Assembly (NCBI GenBank): GCA_046726415.1
Contig: JBKPAK010000004.1
Span: 1-14,165 of the forward strand
Reading direction: 5' to 3'
Source of the DNA: Candidatus Methylomirabilota bacterium
GTDB taxonomy: Bacteria > Methylomirabilota > Methylomirabilia > Rokubacteriales > CSP1-6
DNA length: 14,165 nt
Below, piece after piece: positions 2,844-13,298 of this stretch. The translations under genes were made by a program, and so were the position numbers. The notes below the pieces were generated by a model that was not told the origin of the DNA, did no database searches, and was given only the letters and a program-made list of their open reading frames with translations. Each line of letters begins with the position of its first letter. Within the stretch, counting starts at the first letter, position 1.

Positions 2844-3272
2844 GTGGCCTCCTCAATCGGATTGTCGCGGGACGCAGGGAATTCGCGCACCGATCACCTG
2901 CCGCCCCACGCGGCCGTGGCCGGTCTGGAGGCGATGCGGGCCGCGGCGCGGCTCGGGGTGGGGGTGAGCGATCTTCTGCCCACGCGGCTGGTCGGACTGC
3001 TCGTCCTCGTGGGCACGCGGCGCCTTGCCCGCCGGGCCGGAGTCCGGCAGCGCCCCCGTGGCGGCGTCACGACCCAACCGCAAGTCCTCGGGCCAAACCG
3101 GCGTAACCACTGGCTTTCGGAATGGGCTGCGCTTCGCTCGACGACGGCACGGAGGCATCGTACGCGAAGAACAGGTTGTCATTGCCCAGATTCGCGTGCC
3201 CCACAGGGAAGCACTCCCGTGCTCTGCTGTCCGTGCCAAGGGTCCCAAATGCCCGTTTACGCCGATCAATTA

Positions 3273-3347
3273 ATGAGGTTGCCCTGGGGCCTCATCGCCG
3301 TCGCCGCCGTCCTGGCGGTAAGGCTGGCCACGTGGCTTGGTGTGGCC
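3273..3347 (-). terminator. Cluster of short hairpins downstream of the STAND-lectin gene (possible terminator or DGR cis-element)
   Basis: ATGAGG..CCTCAT (3273-3295), CCGCC..GGCGG (3304-3318), GGCCAC..GTGGCC (3326-3347). No clear poly-U tail, and stems are short for GC-rich DNA. Confidence 0.25.
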
Positions 3348-3363
3348 GTGCGCTGCCCGATCG

Positions 3364-5742
3364 TCACGGCATGCGTGAATCGTCCCGGGCACAGCGGAAA
3401 CCGAGGTTGAGGCCGCGGTCGGCTGACGAGAGGTTGTTGCGGAACGACACCCGCAAGACCTGCGCGTCGTCGTTCCAGGACCCGCCGCGAACCGCCCGGG
3501 GCCTACGAGACGACCGATCCTCGCTCCCCCCGTCGCTTTGAAAGGGGTTGTCGCGATAGAGACTCGAGGTCCACTCCCAGACGTTGCCGATCACGTCGTA
3601 CAGGCCGTAGCCGTTCGGCGGAAAGGATCCAACAGGTGCGGTTGCCTCCCACGTATCCTTGCCCGCCACTCCCTCGCCGTTGGCCTGATCGGCGGAATAC
3701 TTGTTCCCCCAGGGATAGATCCCTTCGGCGTTCCCACCGCGCGCGGCGTACTCCCACTCCGCCTCCGTGGGGAGCCGGCCGCGGACGAATTCACAAAAGC
3801 CCCTGGCGTCGTCCCAGGAGACGTACACGACAGGATGGCTGTCCTGGCTCCACTCGGGCTGCTGCTCCATGACGACGCCCCTCGGCTGGAGTAGGCGTCC
3901 GATGATCGTCGACTGAGCGTCGACGAACCGCCGGAACCGATCGACCGTCACCTCGCGGGACATGACCTCGAAGCCCCGGGACAGTTGGGTTGGGCGACGA
4001 ATCTTGTCAGGGGGCCGCTCATTGGAAAAGCAGTCTTTGTCCCCAGGCACGCAGCCCATCATGAACTGACCGCCGGGCGGCGCCGAGATCCGTATCCAGC
4101 CCAGATCGCTCATCAGGGCGTGCCGAATAAACTCCCGCCTCGCCACGCTGATGCCCAGCGTGCCCAGGACGCCAAGAACGGCGACCGCGACGACCAGCGC
4201 GAGCGTTTTCCTGACGCTGCGTCGGCGTATGTCGCGCTCGCGGCGTTCCTGCTCGGCGCGCAGGCGTTCTTCCTCGGCGCGCCGATCGCGCTCGCGGACC
4301 GCCGTGCTCTCCTCCAAGAAGCGCATGGCTCGCCCGAAGTCGGGATGGTATTGGTCGGCCCACGTGTCGTTCGGCTGATTCCGCTCCCGCCAATCGAGCG
4401 CTACCTGAAGGTCAGGGTCGCGCCATAGGCTCGCCTTGCCCGCCGCGTGCAACTCGGCCGTCTCCGCCAGGCGGCGGTACATCTGGGCCGAGTGGGCTTC
4501 GGCGTCTCCCCAACCTCTCAGCCGCCCCCACACCCGCATCAGACTCTCATGGGAGATGTCGATGACCGTCTCGGCCTTCAACGGTTCCCCGGCCGGCGGC
4601 ATCAAGAACGAACGGCTCGGCTCGCGGAACACGTTGACGACCGCGGTGACCTGCGCGGCCGTAGCCTCGGCAATAGCGCACAAGGCACCAAGCGTGGTCG
4701 GGCGTCGGATTCCGCGGGCGTCCGTCCCCGTGTCGGTCAGCGCCTTGAAGATCTTCTCGCAAATCTTCTGATCGCGCTCGCCGGCCAGCTGGGAATACGC
4801 CTCCTCCGCATGCTCGTCCAGAGCGTTGACCATGGTTCCGATCGCTTCATAGTGCCGCAGCTCCAGCGGGCCTTTGCCGCCGGTCTCCTGCTGCCAGCGG
4901 GCCCAGGTGCGGTTGAGCGCGTGCTGCAGGATCGAAAGCTGGTCCGGATTGTCCCCGACGTCGTTCACCAGCCGCGTCAGTAACACCGGGGCAATCTCGG
5001 CTCCGCCCACGCTGGCCGGCCCCACGATGGCGGCCCGGCGCTCGTCCCGGCTCATCCGGGGAACCAGATACTGACCCTTGTTGATGGCCTCGGGCAACCC
5101 AAAGAATTGCGCGCACTCGCCCAGGAAGTCCGAGCGCATGGTGAGCACGACGTAGACCGGGCAGGAGGCGTCCGCCCGCACTTCCAGCAGCCGGTTCACG
5201 AACCCCGTGGCGTCCTCGCCGATACCTGATGCGGCTTCCAGATGCGAGGCGCCCAGTCTTCGATAGCGAAACAGCTCCTCGAATTGATCCACCAGCAGCA
5301 GCAGATGGACGCCTTCGTCCAGCCGGGCTTGGCGATAGACGTCGATCAGTCCCAGGGTGCTCATGCGCAAGGTGGTCTCGATGATGTCTGCCAGGCTGAA
5401 ATCCCCCGCGTCGAAGCCCTTGTACAACACGCCGTCGCGGGCCAGAGCCGCGGCCATTGCCCGCAAGGGATTGCTGCCAGGCCGGAACTGGGCCATGCGC
5501 CAGGCCGTCCCGGCGCTGGCCATGAGGCCCCGATGCAAGGCCGGGCGCAGCCCGCAGTTGACCAGCGAGGACTTGCCGGAGCCCGAGGTGCCTACCACGG
5601 CCAGGAAGTGAGCCTCGGCCAGGGTGTTCACCATGACATCGACCTGCCTCTCGCGACCGAAAAACAGGTATTCCTCTTCTTCGCGGAACGGTCTCAGACC
5701 CGGGTAGGGATTTATCGGAGCGTCGACGGTCGGTGGGCTCAT
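3364..5742 (-). CDS. nSTAND1-type P-loop NTPase + coiled coil + TM helix + C-terminal FGE-sulfatase/C-type-lectin-fold domain (792 aa)
   Basis: NPYPGLRPF...FFGRE N-terminus, Walker A GTSGSGKSS, Walker B LLLVDQFEELF, VVLTMRSDFLG and DISHESL motifs typical of nSTAND1; R/E-rich coil; TM LALVVAVAVLGVLGTLGISVA (~4143-4208); FGE-family motifs HPVVYVSWDDA, RLPTEAEWEYAARGG, NGYGLYDVIGNVWEW, RGGSW, GFRC. Confidence 0.93.
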   Translation of the reverse strand: MSPPTVDAPINPYPGLRPFREEEEYLFFGRERQVDVMVNTLAEAHFLAVVGTSGSGKSSLVNCGLRPALHRGLMASAGTAWRMAQFRPGSNPLRAMAAALARDGVLYKGFDAGDFSLADIIETTLRMSTLGLIDVYRQARLDEGVHLLLLVDQFEELFRYRRLGASHLEAASGIGEDATGFVNRLLEVRADASCPVYVVLTMRSDFLGECAQFFGLPEAINKGQYLVPRMSRDERRAAIVGPASVGGAEIAPVLLTRLVNDVGDNPDQLSILQHALNRTWARWQQETGGKGPLELRHYEAIGTMVNALDEHAEEAYSQLAGERDQKICEKIFKALTDTGTDARGIRRPTTLGALCAIAEATAAQVTAVVNVFREPSRSFLMPPAGEPLKAETVIDISHESLMRVWGRLRGWGDAEAHSAQMYRRLAETAELHAAGKASLWRDPDLQVALDWRERNQPNDTWADQYHPDFGRAMRFLEESTAVRERDRRAEEERLRAEQERRERDIRRRSVRKTLALVVAVAVLGVLGTLGISVARREFIRHALMSDLGWIRISAPPGGQFMMGCVPGDKDCFSNERPPDKIRRPTQLSRGFEVMSREVTVDRFRRFVDAQSTIIGRLLQPRGVVMEQQPEWSQDSHPVVYVSWDDARGFCEFVRGRLPTEAEWEYAARGGNAEGIYPWGNKYSADQANGEGVAGKDTWEATAPVGSFPPNGYGLYDVIGNVWEWTSSLYRDNPFQSDGGSEDRSSRRPRAVRGGSWNDDAQVLRVSFRNNLSSADRGLNLGFRCARDDSRMP

Positions 5743-7253
5743 CGGGGGGCTGGGGTCGTGGGCGCGACGACCCGCACGAAGGCATCCATCGCCACGTCCG
5801 AGAAACCCTCCAGCCCGTTGATCAGGGTGGGCTCCTCAAGGGCCAGCAAGAGGTCCTTATCGTCCGTGGCCGAGCCCGCGAGGTAGGTGTACTCGGCGAG
5901 GAGCGGCTTGTCACGCTGACCGCGTATCTTCTTGAGCTCGTTTTGCTGGTGGAATTTCCAGGCCTCGTCTCCCCCCCCGTAGAACAGGATGACGGCATCA
6001 CAGCCCATGTACAGCGCCTGGTTGGCCTCTCTGACCTTCGTGGCATCTCCGGTGAAGACGGGGAGCGCGACCTCGAGCCCCCTGGCTTTCAGAAACTTCA
6101 ACACGGGCACGACGTCTTTCCGGTCCCGCTCGACGCAGAGGATGTACACCAGCTTGCGGCTGGCTTCGGCAAGGGGTTGGTCGGTGGTTTTCGGCTGCTC
6201 GGGCTGTTCCAGCTTCTTCAGCGCGGCGTGGATCGCGCCTTTCAGCTGCTCGAGGTCGCCGGTGATCAGGTCGGCGCCCGACTGCATCTCGGCATTCTGA
6301 TGAAGGGCGTCGATGAAGGCCTGCTGGGCCGCCTGCCCGGAGCTGGTCCCCTCGGGGAGCCAGATCACGCGTGGCAACCCGCCGCTCTTGCTGTGCCGAG
6401 CCGCGAGTTCGTTCTGCAGGACGACCACCGATTTCTGGCTGGCCCCATCGGGCACGACCCCGTAGCTGGTGCCGATCAGATGAACCGAGAACCGACATTT
6501 CGCCAGGAGGCGCTCGACCTCGGCGACGTACTCCTCTTCATCGCTGGAGAGCTGTTGATTCGGCAGGACCGTATACCCGTAGCGTTCCAGCTCCCCGCGC
6601 AGGGCCTCCCGGGCGTCTCGGCGGTCGCGACTACACTCGGCGAGATAGACCGTGGGTTTGGGTGCAGACCCGTCGGTGAGCGTGCTGTCGCTGTGCGGAA
6701 CACTGGCGCCGAGCCGGGCCAGCAGTTGGGCGATGTCCCGGGCCAGCTTGTAGACCTTCCTGAGGAACTCCTCTTTCGACTTGTCTCCGTAGGCGGGGTC
6801 GAACTCTCTCGGGGTCTGGTCCTCATCGTAGCCATAGAACTCGTACCCCAGCAGCTTGATCACGACAGGGGGCAGCGGCTCCTCCCGGTCGACCGGGGTT
6901 TTGATGACCTTGAAGACCCGGGACTTATTGTCGACAACGAGACCCCCGGTCCGCAGGGCCCGCTGACAGAACTCGTTGATCTCTTTGGTGCACCATTCCG
7001 AGTGGAGGTAGCGGGGCGTGAGGACGGAGATCAGCGCCGCAGTTTTGGGGAGCTGATCGACGATCTCGTCGGAGAAGATGTCGTTGCCTCTGAGTTTCTC
7101 GTCTCTCCAGATGCCCGCTTTGGTTCCTATCTGCTGGCTGAGCATCGTTTGCAGCGTACGGTGGAACAGGGTGACCCAACCCTTTTGGTCAGGAGTCAAG
7201 GGTTCGTTGTCGATGTGGGCGTAGCTGATGAAGACGTCCCACTGAAAGCTCAT
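5739..7253 (-). CDS. TIR-domain protein with two additional TIR-like/DUF4062-like Rossmann domains (504 aa)
   Basis: Preferred start ATG 7253 (MSFQWDVFISYAHIDN) with GAGGAAG upstream; the 123-aa extension to 7622 in the track looks like non-coding sequence. TIR motifs DVFISYAH, IWRD, TPRYLHSEWCTKE. Domain 2 TVYLAE...ELERYGYTVLP...SVHLIGTSYG; domain 3 LVYILC...FLKARGLEVALP...CDAVILFYG...W...EL. Stop overlaps the next start (ATGA, 5739-5742). Confidence 0.9.
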   Translation of the reverse strand: MSFQWDVFISYAHIDNEPLTPDQKGWVTLFHRTLQTMLSQQIGTKAGIWRDEKLRGNDIFSDEIVDQLPKTAALISVLTPRYLHSEWCTKEINEFCQRALRTGGLVVDNKSRVFKVIKTPVDREEPLPPVVIKLLGYEFYGYDEDQTPREFDPAYGDKSKEEFLRKVYKLARDIAQLLARLGASVPHSDSTLTDGSAPKPTVYLAECSRDRRDAREALRGELERYGYTVLPNQQLSSDEEEYVAEVERLLAKCRFSVHLIGTSYGVVPDGASQKSVVVLQNELAARHSKSGGLPRVIWLPEGTSSGQAAQQAFIDALHQNAEMQSGADLITGDLEQLKGAIHAALKKLEQPEQPKTTDQPLAEASRKLVYILCVERDRKDVVPVLKFLKARGLEVALPVFTGDATKVREANQALYMGCDAVILFYGGGDEAWKFHQQNELKKIRGQRDKPLLAEYTYLAGSATDDKDLLLALEEPTLINGLEGFSDVAMDAFVRVVAPTTPAPR

Positions 7254-7674
7254 GGCCGCTGTCTTCCTCGAAAGCTGCTGCTGGGCGAGCATGGGAACGA
7301 TTGAGGCCACCTCCGCGGCCTCGGGGCGGGCCGCGGGCGTCCGGCTGGCTTCGAGGCGCCCCTCGCCTATGCTCGGGGCCCCGCCGCACCAAGTCTCCCG
7401 TACCACGACTCCTGAATCCGCCCCGGTGCTTCTCTTCCATGGGCCTTCCGACCCCCCCGAGGGGCTGGCCGCCCCCGGGAAGCGTCTGGGCAGACATCTT
7501 ACGGCAAGTTCGAGGCCGCGGTGGACGATCGAGACCCGGCCCCGCCCTCCTCCCCGCGGCGGCGCCCGGTTGATGACGGCGACGCCCCGAGGTGCTCGAC
7601 CGCCGCGTCGAAGTACCCACAATCCTGGTTGAGGCGGCCCCTGACGGGAGTGTCATCCGGCGGCAGGGAGGGGC

Positions 7675-7915
7675 GACGTTGAGGAGACGGCGAGCACGGC
7701 GGTATCGGCACGCGGTATCGGCACATGGTGGCGCGGGGCTGCTCGGCCAGGTTGGCTTTCATGAACTCGAATCTCTGGACGGGATCGACGTGGTCTCCTT
7801 GGCGAACCAGGCCGCGGCGTTGCGGAGGATCTCGCGCTCTTCGCGCAGGACGCGCTCCCGGCGCAGGCGCCGTAGCTCCTCCCGTTCCTCCGAGGTCACG
7901 CCGTCGCCGGCTGGC
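7675..7915 (-). mobile_element. IS3-family transposase remnant (OrfA C-terminus and OrfB N-terminus)
   Basis: OrfA tail [34 protein letters not shown]; overlapping shifted frame [18 protein letters not shown]...VLAVSS resembles the IS3 OrfB start. No DDE domain or terminal inverted repeats seen. Confidence 0.8.
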
Positions 7916-8242
7916 CCTCTTCTCGGTCGGCTTGGGCGACCCCGTTGCGGATGGCGGCGGCCGACGGTTCGAACTTTCGGGCCCTTTGCCAGAACTGCGT
8001 CAGGCCGGCGAGTTGTTGATCTGTTGGCTATAGGGATAGGAATTTCTAGGGCGCTCGCGCGCGTGCCTGACGCCAACCTTCACCTCGTTCTCGCTCCCCC
8101 CGGGTCGCGCCGCCTGAGCCGCGATGCTCCGCTGGCGTGGGGAGGGCCGGGTGTGCGGAGGGCGTCTCCGCGGTCCCGATTTCTTGGAGGGAAAGCGGGC
8201 GTGGAAGGGCCGCCCCGAGGGGGACGGATCCGATAAGATCGC

Positions 8243-9097
8243 TCATCGTGCGTCCTTGCGGCGCATCTCGCGGATCGCGTCTTGAGTGCGCCGATCAGCT
8301 CGTCGTCGGGACGGCCGCCAGGCGCCCGGCCCCAATGTGGCACCGTGAACGCCTCGGGCACGTGGCGGTACCGAGACGGGTTGCCGTCGTAGTCGGGGTC
8401 GATCGCGATCGGCACGATGAACGTGCGGCCCCCAGGGGGGATCCTATTCGCTCGTTCCACCGCCTCGCGCCACTCCACGAGGAGGAGTGGGCTCTCCTTC
8501 AGCCGGTAGTTGAGCCACTCCGGGAGGCGTGCCGTCTCAGTGAGCAGGGTTGCAGCCACTCGAGGATGTCCTCGTCGTGCAGGGCGTACTGCGGGGTCGA
8601 GGACGCTTTGCCGAAGACCTTGAACACCACCGTGTCGTCTTCCGGGGTGCGCGCGCGTTCTCCTCCTGCTCGCCCGTGGACTGGTTGGGCGAGAACTCGC
8701 GCGTGCGCGCTTCGGCGCCGAAGCGGACCCCGTTGAGGGCGCGGGCGAGGAGCGAGTCGAACGTCGTGCCGATGAAGACACGGAAGTCGCCGATGCCTGC
8801 GAGCTGGCGCAGTGCCTCCGGCGGTTCCGGATTCAGATCGGAGAGGAGGTCGTTGACCACCCGGTAGAGGCGCTGGGCTTCACCGCGCCCGGCCAGGTCG
8901 CTGCGACGGCGTCATCAAGCGCGGATTCTGGCCCCCAGTCGACCTTGAGCTGATACCGCGCGGCGATGCGTTCGCCCAGGAGCCGCGAGAGGGTCACCGG
9001 CCGATCGCCATCCTGGACCCTGACGAGCTCCGGCCCGGAGCACCCGCTCTTTCAAGTGCCCGAGGATATCGTCCCAGAAATCCTCGCGTGCGGTCAC
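8243..9097 (-). pseudogene. Degraded SIR2-like + TIR protein (about 5 frameshifts and a probable large internal deletion)
   Basis: GTG 9097 with GGGAGG RBS. Stitched frames: VTAREDFWDDILGHLKERVL / GPELVRVQDGDRPVTLSRLLGERIAARY... / LYRVVNDLL...ALRQLAGIGDFRVFIGTTFDSLLARAL... / VVFKVFGKASSTPQYALHDEDILEWL / LPEWLNYRLKESPLLL // VEWREAVERANRIPPGGRTFIVPIAID...VPEAF / DAIREMRRKDAR*. TTFD and FKVFG match SIR2-like motif positions; EW...FIVPIAID matches a TIR C-terminal half. Confidence 0.75.
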
Positions 9098-9368
9098 CCG
9101 GCCTCCCTCTCGGATCAACAGATTAGCGCAGGACGCCAATTCGACCAGGGGCCCCAGAATGGACCCAATAGCATCAACGAATTCGGGCATCGGAGGGCTG
9201 GCGTGGCACACCCCGAGAGCCCTCGGCCCGCCTGCGGCGGCCGCCTGGCCTCGGTATGAGGATGCCGGGCCGGTCAGTCCTTCGGCAGTCGTCCGCAAAG
9301 CGTCGCGCTTGTCGTGTCGACGAGCTTTTTGTGCGCACGTCTCGATACGCTCCTCCTTTTTCCAGGGA

Positions 9369-9429: not shown

Positions 9430-9969
9430 GTGGTCATCGCGGTGGCCGGCCGGCGCATCGATGCGGCCCATGCGAAGGCTCCGCGCTTTCCGCTGCACAA
9501 CGTGCCGATCGTTGAGCGACGGCTTGGTGAGTTGTTCGAGCGGGAAGCCGCGACGGCCCTGGTCGGCTCCGCCGCGTGCGGAGCTGACCTGGTGGCATTG
9601 AGGGTGGCGGGCGTGCGGGGAATGCGCCGCCGCATCGTGCTTCCCTTCAGTCGCGATGAATTCCGCGCGACCTCAGTAGCTGATCGGCCTGGGGACTGGG
9701 GCCCGGTGTACGACCGGGTCCTGGCCGAGCTAGTTCCGACCCGCGACGTGATCATCCTCGAAGGGCGCAGCAAAGAGAACGATCCGTACCTGGCGGCCAA
9801 CGAGGTTATCTTGCACAATGCAGCAACGCTGGCTCGGGAGTCGAACGCCAAAGTGCTGGCCGTCCTTGTCTGGGAAGGAGCGCCACGTGCCGCCGACGAC
9901 GTCACGGCCGCCTTCGGTGACGAAGCCTGTAGACGCGGCTGGCGCGTGGAGGAGGTGAGGACGCTGTGA
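9430..9969 (+). CDS. Stand-alone SLOG-like (YpsA/DprA-fold) putative nucleotide-binding protein (179 aa)
   Basis: GTG start with AGGAGG (9418-9423) 6 nt upstream. Motifs VIAVAGRRID...PRFP, GSAACGADL, RRIVLPF, LVWEG parallel the C-terminal domain of the 680-aa protein (VILFAGHRID...PRFP, APGGDILF, CLPM, LALWDG). Confidence 0.8.
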   Translation: MVIAVAGRRIDAAHAKAPRFPLHNVPIVERRLGELFEREAATALVGSAACGADLVALRVAGVRGMRRRIVLPFSRDEFRATSVADRPGDWGPVYDRVLAELVPTRDVIILEGRSKENDPYLAANEVILHNAATLARESNAKVLAVLVWEGAPRAADDVTAAFGDEACRRGWRVEEVRTL

Positions 9970-9977
9970 GGCCGTTT

Positions 9978-11162
9978 TTAGATCTCGACGGCCGCCACCT
10001 CCGGCAGATCGAAGCCGGCGGGGAAATCCGCGGCATTCACGTCACGCGCGGCCGCCAGGACGCCAAGCTTGTGTAGGTACGACATGTTCTCCGGCGCATC
10101 CATCGCGCTCAGCGATGCGATCCTGTTGGCCTCAGGGGGCACCGGATCAAGCGCGCGCACGCTGTCGGCCCTAAGATCGACGTTGTAGCGCAGGTAGCTG
10201 AGGGCTGGAACGCTACCGGCAAGGTCCTGCCCCAGATCGCCGAGCTCGAGATCGATCTGGCGGGCCGTGCGGCTGCTCGACATCCACTGCAACAGCATCT
10301 CCTGCAGTAGGGCACAGTCCTCCATAAGGGACAGGAGCGCCTTGAGCGCGCCCTGCGCGGCGAGCTTCGAGGGTTTCACGCTCGGATCCGATGCGCCCGT
10401 GCCCACCGAAACCACCAGAAGCTTGTCCGCCCCTGTCGGCCAGCCGATCCGGTAGCCGCCGAGCGTGGCATACATGACAGCTATCAGCGCCGGGTTGTTA
10501 AATGGGCTGATGCCACCATCGATGAACTCGCCGACGACGGGCGCCGCGCCGGGCGTGCTCCCGATCGTGATAGGCTCTGGCTCGAAGTACGATGGGGCAG
10601 CGGTGGATGCTCGCACAACCTGCCAAAGCGGGTAGTCGCTGTTGCCGATGGTCCCGCCGACTCGCGCCGCGAAGTACTTGCCGCGAGGATTGTTGCTGAT
10701 CGGCCACCAGCTCCCGGTGTCGATTCGCTTGGTGACCAGGAGCAGGCCCGTCTCGATCTTGTCGCTGCCCAGGGTCGTCTCGGGCCCGTAGACCTTCTGG
10801 AGCTCGTCGATCAGACGGCTCTCGTCGTACTTGGCGCGCAGCACACCCTGCCGGAAGAACGTCTTTTCAAACACCCGTGAGCCCAGCTCCATGTACTTCG
10901 CGCGGATCTGCTCGACGGACCAGCCAAGCGAGACGGTCGCGGCGATAATGGCGCCGGTAGAGGTGCCTGCGACGAGATCGAAGTAGTGGCACAGCCGGAA
11001 GTCGGGGCTGTCCCCGTGCCGTTCTCGCAGAATCGTCTCGATCCGCTGGAGGATGGCGAGAGTTAGGATCCCACGCAACCCGCCCCCGTCGAGCGCGAGG
11101 ATCCGCTTGGGCTCACCGTCATTACTCAGGTGCTGGTCGCGACTTCGTCTCACGTGCGGCAT
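9978..11162 (-). CDS. Patatin-like phospholipase (394 aa)
   Basis: ILALDGGGLRG glycine loop, catalytic GTSTG, RASTAAPSYF, and DGG motif. ATG 11162 preferred because AAGGAGG lies 6 nt upstream; the track start 11198 is an alternative. Confidence 0.93.
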   Translation of the reverse strand: MPHVRRSRDQHLSNDGEPKRILALDGGGLRGILTLAILQRIETILRERHGDSPDFRLCHYFDLVAGTSTGAIIAATVSLGWSVEQIRAKYMELGSRVFEKTFFRQGVLRAKYDESRLIDELQKVYGPETTLGSDKIETGLLLVTKRIDTGSWWPISNNPRGKYFAARVGGTIGNSDYPLWQVVRASTAAPSYFEPEPITIGSTPGAAPVVGEFIDGGISPFNNPALIAVMYATLGGYRIGWPTGADKLLVVSVGTGASDPSVKPSKLAAQGALKALLSLMEDCALLQEMLLQWMSSSRTARQIDLELGDLGQDLAGSVPALSYLRYNVDLRADSVRALDPVPPEANRIASLSAMDAPENMSYLHKLGVLAAARDVNAADFPAGFDLPEVAAVEI

Positions 11163-11181
11163 GGGGCGCCTCCTTGCATCT

Positions 11182-13224
11182 TCATCCGACATCGTCATTC
11201 GAGAGCAGCTCGTGGGAGTCGATGCGCCTCACATCGACGACACCGGCGTGGCGCGCCAGCTCGACCATGTCCGCCGTCCCGCCGCGGTCATCCCCCGTCG
11301 GCTGGCCGTCCCACAGGGCCAGCAGCGTGATCCGCTTGGCACCGGCGGCCAGCCCCATCTGGAGGACCCAGCGATTCCCCCGCTCCCAAACGTTGATCGA
11401 CGTGCCGGCCAGCCAGCGTGGGAGACCCTCCTGGTCGGTCAGTTCAAGTACGTCGCAGTTGCGCTCCCGATTGCGGTTGAGCAACGCCAGGAACCGGGAA
11501 CGCCAGTCGTCGACATCGTCGCTGAACATGTGGGAGGAGTACTTGTCCGCTGGCATCGGGAGGCACGGAAGGCTGCGAACCCCAAGCTCGTTGCACACTT
11601 CGTGGAAGAGAATGTCGCCGCCAGGCGCGGCGGGGGCGAATCCGAGCATCTGCATGTCGTCGGAGACGAGCTTGGTCAAGGCATCGCAGATGAGGCGCTT
11701 GGCTCGATCACCCTTGCTGGCGGGAAAGCGGGGCTCAGGCCGGCCGGGACGGTCGATGCGATGGCCAGCGAACAGAATGACGTGCAGAGGTTTCGGGGGA
11801 GGTTTGCTGGACCCGGCAAACTTGCGATCGACTTCCGCCATGACCTTCTCCGCGCGGCCGGCTCGAACTCCGAGGTCGGCGAAAAGCTGGAGCTGGCCTC
11901 TGGCCGCGTCCCACACGAACGGCTTGTCACGGGGAATGGTGTCGCGATAGCGGCTGACGACCCGCTGATCGTTCTGATCTGTTAGGAACAGCACGTCCCC
12001 CTTGCTCACCTCGGGCCAAATCCGGTCCTTGTGGTTGGCCGGCAACTGCGCCAGGGCCCTGTCGACGGAGGCCGAGACGACGTGTCGCAGCGCTGCGACG
12101 TCCTGGACGAGCTCCTGCCGATACCGGTCGGCCTGCGCATCGTCGTCGAACGTCGACTTCCAGGTCTCAACCGTGTCCGATAGATCGAGGAAGATCGTGC
12201 CCATCTGGAGTGCGGCCAGCCCGGACCAGAAGTGATTGAGATCCTTGGCGAACGCGGCTCGATAGGCATCGAAACTTTTGCGCAACGACTCAGTCATCCC
12301 GGACGACCGGCGCTCCTCGACGGACGCCAGGTCCGCGAATTCCAGACGCCAGCGCGTCTTTAGATTACGCCCCTGCAGCGCAAACGCTTCCACCTGGTCT
12401 CTGCCAGCAACGTCCTGGCGCCTGAGTATGCGCTCGATGGCTTGATCGGATAGAGCGAGCAGTTCGGGCTTCCTCTCGTCCCTGTACAACCGCTCGTAAA
12501 CGTTGACCAAGGCGAGGTTGGCTTTCACGTTCTCCGGCTCGACCGCTCGAATGGCCTCGAGATTTTCCCGGGCGCCCGCGTAGTCCTTAAGGTCGCACTG
12601 GCTGTCCGCGACCAGCTGGAGGCCCGGACGCTCGAATGGGCGACCACGGACCTCCTGCGCGAGGAGTCGCAGCCAGCCCTTGGAGTTCGCGGCCTGGGCC
12701 CGGTTGACCTCCTCCCGGAAGTCGAAGGGGACGAACTGACCTGAGGACGGATCGGCCTCCAACAGTTCGGGAAGCATGGTGAAGATCGGGCTGTCGCTGC
12801 GTCGATCGCTCTGCAGCGTGGCACGGATCGACTGCACGAGCTTGGCCTTCGCCCCCTGATCGGCAAGGTCATAGGAAATATATCGGTCGGTGAGCAGATC
12901 GAACGGAGGTGTGTCCGCTGAACCGACGTGCTTGATGACGAGCGTGCTCTTTCGCCGTAGCGCGTGGCGAATGCCGAGCTCGTAGAAGACGTTCGCGTTC
13001 AGCAGCGTGATGTCACAGACCACCAAGTCGGCCGCGAGGATGAAGGAGAACATGTCCTCGCGTATGTTTCCGGCATCGATGATCTCGCCAGTGGTGGATC
13101 CCGCAAGTCCCGCTTCGCTGAGCGCCGGACCGATCAGATTGGCATGCACCGCCTCAAAATCGAACTCCCGGCCGGCAGAGTCCTTCTTCCTTCCAAATGG
13201 GCGGATGACGAATGCACGCGCCAT
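11182..13224 (-). CDS. Deoxyribohydrolase/NDT-like domain + TPR region (DUF4071/MAP3K TRAF-binding/TPR-S-like) + C-terminal SLOG-like domain (680 aa)
   Basis: ATG 13224 with AGGAGG 5 nt upstream. N-terminal AFVIRPFG...ADLVVCDITLLNANVFYELGIRHALR...PFD, then SDSPIF; helical TPR-like middle (ALQGRNLKTRW, YRAAF..DLNHFWSGL); C-terminal (~11790-11182) FAGHRID, APGGDILFHE, LALWDG, GGTADMV. Confidence 0.88.
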   Translation of the reverse strand: MARAFVIRPFGRKKDSAGREFDFEAVHANLIGPALSEAGLAGSTTGEIIDAGNIREDMFSFILAADLVVCDITLLNANVFYELGIRHALRRKSTLVIKHVGSADTPPFDLLTDRYISYDLADQGAKAKLVQSIRATLQSDRRSDSPIFTMLPELLEADPSSGQFVPFDFREEVNRAQAANSKGWLRLLAQEVRGRPFERPGLQLVADSQCDLKDYAGARENLEAIRAVEPENVKANLALVNVYERLYRDERKPELLALSDQAIERILRRQDVAGRDQVEAFALQGRNLKTRWRLEFADLASVEERRSSGMTESLRKSFDAYRAAFAKDLNHFWSGLAALQMGTIFLDLSDTVETWKSTFDDDAQADRYRQELVQDVAALRHVVSASVDRALAQLPANHKDRIWPEVSKGDVLFLTDQNDQRVVSRYRDTIPRDKPFVWDAARGQLQLFADLGVRAGRAEKVMAEVDRKFAGSSKPPPKPLHVILFAGHRIDRPGRPEPRFPASKGDRAKRLICDALTKLVSDDMQMLGFAPAAPGGDILFHEVCNELGVRSLPCLPMPADKYSSHMFSDDVDDWRSRFLALLNRNRERNCDVLELTDQEGLPRWLAGTSINVWERGNRWVLQMGLAAGAKRITLLALWDGQPTGDDRGGTADMVELARHAGVVDVRRIDSHELLSNDDVG

Positions 13225-13298
13225 ACGCACCTCCTGCCGAATGGCTCAACGGGGGTTCCTGCCATCCCTTTCAGTCCGGAAGGACCGCAGCCGGCGAG

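Follow-up and report, generated by a model that had tools for sequence, protein, structure and literature searches.

A STAND-coupled lectin receptor of a Methylomirabilota bacterium whose C-terminal tip is probably an orphaned, frozen variable repeat of a diversity-generating retroelement

The window analysed here is a whole contig of 14,165 nucleotides (JBKPAK010000004.1; C4) from the genome of a Candidatus Methylomirabilota bacterium of the order Rokubacteriales (GCA_046726415.1; G000; 7.6 Mb, 67.5% GC, 98% complete, 352 contigs). It carries an intact gene for a receptor in which a STAND NTPase is followed by a single hydrophobic helix and a C-lectin domain of the formylglycine-generating enzyme type (FGE-type CLec); a gene for a TIR-domain protein overlaps its start (Table 1). 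The subject of this analysis is the tip of the lectin domain, an RGGSW...GFR segment. A first-pass annotation, made from the sequence alone, had taken this tip for the variable repeat (VR) of a diversity-generating retroelement (DGR) and the protein for a hypervariable sensor diversified from a remote site. The evidence presented below makes it probable that the tip is an orphaned, frozen VR and not part of a sensor that is still being diversified.

The annotated combination of a STAND NTPase with a lectin sensor is borne out by the PF20703 and PF03781 matches and by fold matches. The Walker A (GTSGSGKSS) and Walker B (LLLVDQFEE) motifs are both intact in the sequence, and the occurrence of the two Pfam families in one open reading frame (ORF), with an overlapping TIR gene, corresponds to the definition of the nSTAND1-FGS/CLec conflict systems. 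A structural model of the receptor (pLDDT 77, pTM 0.56) contains one long helix (residues 469-546), and its NTPase part resembles ORC/Cdc6 and CED-4 in Foldseek. The VR sits at the C-terminal end of the CLec fold, a placement taken from the domain and PDB matches and not from the geometry of the predicted pocket; the tip itself is weakly modelled (pLDDT <50 at 758-763). Because the hydrophobic run follows an Arg-rich stretch, the positive-inside rule suggests an N-in/C-out topology, with a cytoplasmic NTPase and the lectin outside.

By both sequence and fold, the CLec domain matches FGEs and the Treponema variable protein 2Y3C in the PDB. The best of these matches are FGEs, as would be expected of a catalytic FGE or related oxidase fused to a STAND domain. 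This explanation is very improbable. The domain shares the fold and core motifs of SUMF1/FGE but lacks the catalytic cysteines: in an alignment with human FGE, the cysteine pair after GGS has no counterpart in the receptor, as the first-pass annotation had remarked. In addition, all NCBIfam enzyme families score far below cut-off, and 12 columns of the tip are hypervariable in the family (values given below).

Table 1. Features of the window (positions in nucleotides of the 14,165-nucleotide stretch).
Feature	Position	Strand	Basis
FecR-domain, secreted-looking protein with at least 4 tandem repeats of ~306-312 bases, running off the contig end	1-2843	minus	sequence
Gap of 520 bases behind the receptor stop, where a cis cassette (avd, template repeat, reverse transcriptase) would sit	2844..3363		no remnant found
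Receptor gene, 792 residues, intact	3364..5742	minus	ORF and domain matches
FGE-type CLec domain, residues 556-786, without FGE catalytic cysteines	3385..4077	minus	PF03781 E 1.8e-54
Putative fossil VR, residues 752-783, RGGSW...GFR	3394..3489	minus	12 template-defined codons ending in C between 3474 and 3406
Single hydrophobic helix, ~residues 513-535, after Arg-rich stretch	4138..4206	minus	Kyte-Doolittle 2.5 over 19 residues
Graft junction, residues 471-510, charged helix	4213..4332	minus	sliding identity
nSTAND1 NTPase domain, residues 12-432	4447..5709	minus	PF20703 E 3.4e-93
TIR-domain gene, 4-base overlap with receptor start	5739..7253	minus	TIR_2 E 6.4e-12
Short remnant, frameshifted, single-copy in genome, between broken gene and TIR gene	7640-8050	minus	no Pfam match
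Broken gene in at least 3 frames	8060-9100	minus	pieces without Pfam match
Small SLOG-like ORF	9430-9969	plus	weak match
Patatin gene	9978-11198	minus	similar to CBASS phospholipase models, below cut-off
TPR-S gene	11182-13230	minus	conflict-system gene

To avoid a post hoc choice of positions, the template positions were defined independently of the window. They come from G172, a genome of the same bacterial family that holds a complete DGR, and were read off the template repeat (TR) of that DGR. The VR and TR of that element differ at 14 positions, all of them TR adenines. Within RGGSW...GFR the G172 TR has 12 AAC codons, which correspond to residues 757-759, 762, 767, 769-771, 775 and 777-779 of the receptor, and at each of them the window codon ends in C (NNC, 12/12). 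Given the encoded residues and the codon use of the remainder of the gene, the probability of this outcome is 4.2e-4; without conditioning it is 2.8e-5. The codons quoted in the first-pass annotation are correct (3477-3394, minus strand; residues 756-783 of the 792-residue ORF), and the 11 it had listed as C-ending give p = 7.5e-3 with a rough genome-wide codon table. Its remark that neighbouring codons often end in G or A holds for G and fails for A, as the other 20 codons of residues 752-783 end in C (9), G (9), A (1) and T (1). Among 69 non-template FGE tips of the same length in the fetched loci, three reach 12/12 NNC: the window, the G172 VR and a tip in G015 that directly precedes a DGR reverse transcriptase (RT) gene. 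The NNC signature is strong but not unique.

Two other sets of FGE tips were recorded. A second FGE protein of the window genome (L004; G000:C8:119572-120375) has 10/12 NNC and 12/12 NNY codons at the same positions, and no template for its tip was found in G000; it is possibly an older fossil tip. In a Myxococcales metagenome-assembled genome (L048), two FGE tips 3 kb apart (7454 and 10624) show 10 and 11/12 NNC and differ at 22/96 bases. No template was found in this 11-kb locus, and the two tips are candidates for paired DGR targets.

Comparison with the closest homologue in GTDB genomes provides further evidence. This homologue, in G001 of the same genus, has a tip with the same sequence as locus L011 (Candidatus Rokubacteria), and 11/12 of its codons are NNC. 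Between the window and G001, bases 1-2 of the 12 codons differ at 16/24 positions, whereas base 3 differs at 1/12 (Fisher p 0.0013); in the domain core, third bases differ at 52/125 codons for the same residue and at 37/79 for a different one. This contrast is the pattern expected of two independent rewrites from similar templates. In the 24 bases after the tip, 22/24 align with G001; the next pyrimidine-rich stretch of G001 is missing in the window, and no template defines an initiation of mutagenic homing site. An avd-like frame of 47 codons starts 80 nt past the stop of the G001 homologue. It matches NF033474 (E 8.9e-7) and PF22296 (E 0.0028), both under cut-off, its best blastp match is the Avd of the G032 DGR, and it is truncated where an opposite-strand ATPase gene ends. 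The STAND gene of G001 is spread over three frames. The receptor family is present at close identity in 3/251 genomes of the phylum, and this truncated avd is the only cassette trace found among them.

At the level of the protein family, column statistics were computed on 30 proteins (P0001 and P0006 left out). The 12 columns are the most variable block, with a mean entropy of 2.77 versus 1.14 bits, and residues out of reach from AAC (K, E, Q, M, W) occupy 19/360 cells in these columns versus 350/1549 at other variable columns. In a tree built without the G172 target, whose locus is truncated, and without P0006, whose tip is frameshifted, the window gene groups with P0132 and P0002 (support 0.994), within a clade that also holds P0003-P0010 (0.998). 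P0003, with 75% identity in the core and 16/20 in the tip framework, shares 0/12 of the variable residues; P0132 (~90% identical) and P0002 (83% identical in the core) retain 10/12 and 11/12. The last rewrite would therefore postdate the separation from P0003-like genes and predate the divergence of the window gene, P0132 and P0002. Together, the codon statistics, the divergence from G001 at bases 1-2 only, the avd-like fragment and the residue set across the family argue strongly for DGR ancestry of the tip, in line with the first-pass annotation.

A DGR is not the only possible source of such a tip. An ordinary binding loop that was never a DGR target could acquire NNC codons through high GC and an Asn/Asp/Phe-rich surface, and its variability could result from diversifying selection. 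Several observations favour such a loop or otherwise weigh against an orphaned VR. Of the 12 codons, eight specify N, D or F, where an ending in C is common here anyway (71-87% in this genome); several FGE tips without a nearby template score 9-11/12 NNC, including the C8 tip of G000; and binding loops of the ordinary kind are typically rich in Asp, Tyr, Asn and Ser as well. The avd evidence consists of one 47-residue fragment, under both curated cut-offs and in another genome, and the assemblies compared are in 352 contigs (G000) or only 72% complete (G001). Neither DGR-linked target in the tree (L054, L173) falls within the family clade, which has no verified DGR target; no target of this particular family was found within a complete DGR, and no cognate template for the window tip was found in 308 loci. 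The reference templates belong to caspase-FGE targets and carry 10-11 non-adenine differences from the window tip. Finally, the fixed-specificity, NLR-like receptor proposed below would owe its ligand and its TIR coupling to analogy with STAND/NLR biology. The ordinary loop is nevertheless unlikely, as it has to accommodate the conditional probability of 4e-4, a third base kept at 11/12 codons against a core drift of 42-47%, an avd-like gene directly behind the G001 homologue and the four-fold depletion of AAC-unreachable residues.

The description of the tip as hypervariable is not supported for the present-day gene. The receptor's 90% cluster has 13 members, including the window protein. Seven other 792-residue alleles differ from the window at 2-6 residues (10 sites in all); the tip is identical in 7/7 of them, and the 12 codons contain 0/10 of the polymorphic sites. 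In the other four members, which are partial or frameshifted, the tip is not represented. Between the window and P0132 or P0002, identity over residues 752-783 is 0.91 and 0.84, respectively, against 0.83-0.88 in the lectin core; the tip therefore now evolves no faster than the rest of the protein. Those members of clusters 2-6 and 8 that reach the tip share it, one Y-to-F change excepted, and cluster 7 (members ~90% identical) shows a few tip changes. Read-level evidence consists of assembled contigs from sequencing runs (among them X1-X3), any of which may be the source sample. The X3 contig covers 3381-3589 with 0 differences, bearing in mind that contigs hide rare variants; the X1 contig has 7 differences, of which the 6 listed all fall outside the tip, and the differences of X2, too, are placed only in part. 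The excess variability anticipated at these codons among orthologues is thus absent in close relatives (~84-90% identical) and present in distant family members, where it is consistent with past activity.

The search for the missing cassette gave a similar picture. Neither a template repeat nor a DGR RT was found by searches of the window, as annotated. In the gap behind the receptor, tblastn of 14 avd-like proteins returned, among the matches listed, only noise (best E 0.017), and contigs from two soil runs extend through this gap into the receptor gene. With the tip as query, short-word blastn found no non-self match in the genome better than E 0.028. In an adenine-wildcard scan of all 352 contigs, the best non-self place had 35 non-A mismatches over 111 nt, or 28 over 96 nt; the true pairs in L054 and G172 give 0 in a within-locus scan. 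The L054 locus (Candidatus Accumulibacter aalborgensis; 10702 and 12396), which served as positive control, is a complete DGR with an FGE target and 18 mismatches, all at template adenines. A scan of the genome for AAC/AAT-rich windows returned Asn-rich coding stretches and no FGE template framework among the 31 best places. NF033474 and PF22296 gave 0 avd matches in G000. Two RT places were found there, both with TIGR04416 as best match and with G(T/V)PQGG...YADD motifs of the group II intron type; the RT parts of DGR RT queries from relatives match only these two places in G000, at 25-35% identity.

Searches beyond the genome were equally negative for a cognate template. A template motif gave 10 matches in 183 genomes of the order, three of which are true templates (G172, G032, G015); of the seven others, the four translated represent one unrelated conserved protein. 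No match was found in G000, G001 or G002, and a looser tip motif gave 0 matches in 5 genomes. No RT was found by RT search in G001 and G034, and G002 has five RT places, of which the four with the motif read are of group II type. In IMG/VR, the motif scan for a template gave 0 matches, and a scan for the family returned 77 loci. All of these are distant (best segments <=48% identical), and their templates show 17 or more non-adenine differences from the window tip. No close family member was found in the metagenome scan (<=48% identity).

These results speak against the remote (trans) DGR target put forward in the first-pass annotation: the genome, which is 98% complete and not closed, contains no template-like copy, no avd and, as RTs, only those of group II introns. 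For the target to be active, its template and RT would have to lie on an unassembled contig or mobile element, or in part of the population, with strong selection purging the variants. The 352 pieces of the assembly leave room for this, DGR cassettes with FGE-type templates exist in the same bacterial family (G172, G015, G032), and the consulted parts of the literature document both trans activity with mixed populations (PMC10907252) and purifying selection that can mask activity (PMC8144416). The completeness of the assembly, a tip that is the same in 7/7 alleles and nearly so in close relatives, the invariant X3 contig and the lack of a template-like match in IMG/VR make an active remote target quite improbable.

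The receptor is a chimera, in which an nSTAND1 NTPase of WD40/TPR-sensor kin is joined to a transmembrane (TM) plus CLec module. Among the 120 best matches to residues 1-480, at least 4 list PF03781, and three of these are this lineage; most others, at 69-77% identity, end in WD40, TPR, kinase or pentapeptide regions or have no domain listed for the tail. The closest lectin relatives show the converse, with only 26-51% identity over residues 1-470 and 66-83% over residues 511-751, and it is at the junction that nSTAND1-WD40/TPR kin give way to the TM-CLec family as the most similar sequences. Members of the TM-CLec family were observed on at least 3 different STAND chassis. A separate subclade of this family (support 0.978; P0064, P0067, P0071, P0077, P0080, P0090, P0093, P0096, P0100 (= G034, L172), P0102 and P0115) has one tip type with only gradual change, and looks like a second, older freeze.

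An orphaned, frozen VR can be fitted into the following course of events. The ancestor of the TM-CLec module would have been a DGR target with an adjoining avd, in which adenine-specific retrohoming rewrote 12 AAC-derived pocket codons, as the sequence imprints suggest. As the chimerism shows, the module was joined at the charged helix to a different nSTAND1 NTPase of the WD40/TPR-bearing kind, with a timing that is inferred, and the cassette would have been left behind or lost, before or after the graft. One allele has been fixed since before the split from relatives ~84-90% identical. The product would be a fixed-specificity, single-pass NLR-like receptor whose outer lectin pocket binds a ligand, probably an invader's. 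By comparison with STAND/NLR biology, the cytoplasmic STAND switch would then oligomerise and activate the co-translated TIR protein, leading to a defence or death response.

The type of system is already known; what is new here is a target for which no template was found in the genome, long fixed and on a swapped chassis. In its consulted parts, Dore et al. 2024 (PMC10907252) describes clade-5 cellular DGRs that diversify nSTAND1/NACHT-CLec (FGE) "putative antigen sensors", such as DGR 3 and DGR 6 of Thiohalocapsa PB-PSB1. Those targets and the window receptor share an nSTAND1 domain with a C-terminal FGE-type CLec and a VR located at the C-terminal tip, in which codon positions 1-2 are the ones that change. 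The same text reports nearby TIR effectors, membrane helices in some targets, loci that have degenerated, and the recombination of CLec regions with new N-termini. As far as that text goes, each target that is undiversified or degenerate has its matching TR in the genome or population, and this holds even for the invariant DGR 1. By contrast, searches of the genome of the window receptor found no TR, avd or DGR RT, and the receptor's allele is common to relatives ~84-90% identical. Kaur et al. 2021 (PMC8195603), likewise consulted in part, describes STAND NTPase-FGS counter-invader systems that have TIR partners and, often, DGR parts either close by or at another place in the genome. The nSTAND1-FGS fusion and TIR partner are common to these systems, for which invader sensing was proposed, and to the window receptor; the latter differs in having no shared adaptor domain of the EAD or bDLD3 type by Pfam scan, a membrane helix between NTPase and lectin, and no DGR parts found. 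TvpA of Treponema denticola (PDB 2Y3C) has the same FGE-type CLec fold (phmmer E 4e-15, Foldseek E 4.1e-8). According to the available portion of PMC10907252, it belongs to an intact DGR and is a surface lipoprotein that stands alone, unlike the STAND-coupled window protein, for which no cassette was found. In literature listings and the opening lines of abstracts on lost or inactive targets, nothing on long-fixed orphan tips was found.

Genomic neighbourhood analysis places the receptor in a conflict island, as indicated by the patatin, TPR-S and broken genes upstream; the small SLOG-like ORF is, on a weak match, a further gene of this kind. The TIR protein has an FxsC-like N-terminus (E 1.2e-14, below cut-off) and is likely to be the partner effector or adaptor; PADLOC gave no system match for it or the receptor beyond weak NTPase matches. 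The short remnant resembles the start of an IS3-family transposase, and the broken gene resembles one for a SIR2-like plus TIR protein. By tblastn, no match was found for the broken gene in the SIR2-TIR gene lying ahead of the G001 homologue.

DGR cassettes or parts of them were observed elsewhere in the bacterial family, at G172:C44 (L193), the end of G015:C21 (L204), G015:C133 (L192), G032:C151 (L194), G124:C2 (L195), G015:C131 (L197) and G172:C39 (L196). The complete DGR of G172 has a caspase-PEGA-FGE target, and on contig C39 of this genome a third kind of target bears repeat pairs that are adenine-specific. G015 resembles G172 in the caspase-type target and its template and, in addition, holds a second DGR with repeats of another type. 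At the end of G015:C21 (L204:8552-9064), the DGR RT frame that follows the G015 target passes after ~100 residues into sequence with several 53-79% identical copies in G000, which suggests that an insertion element interrupts the RT at the contig break. Matches to avd-like proteins were found in 10/183 genomes of the order, 5 of them above cut-off; three of the matches look more like 23S-rRNA intervening-sequence proteins. No full-text literature pairing DGRs with Rokubacteria or Methylomirabilota was found, and supplementary tables of large surveys may list such cassettes.

For the study of these receptors, codon signatures alone do not prove current hypermutation, and RT-anchored DGR surveys miss fossils of this kind. 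The consulted parts of Roux et al. 2021 (PMC8144416) note that RT-anchored searches miss remote targets. As of 2024, the available text of PMC10907252 gives DGR-diversified STAND-lectins as proposed bacterial antigen sensors, none of them tested. In the search for a ligand, an allele that has become fixed in nature and has long been retained offers a simpler bait than a hypervariable one.

The family may show freezing repeatedly, in the window allele and in a separate subclade whose ten proteins end in D(S/F/A)(T/S)(I/T)GFR. A tentative idea, which we hold to be possible and not yet likely, is that DGRs act as a temporary maturation step: a winning pocket would be fixed and freed from its cassette, and the TM-lectin module grafted to another STAND chassis and inherited as an innate receptor. 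If this is true, fixed pockets would be a record of long-lived ligands, probably invader molecules that are conserved and are encountered in the periplasm.

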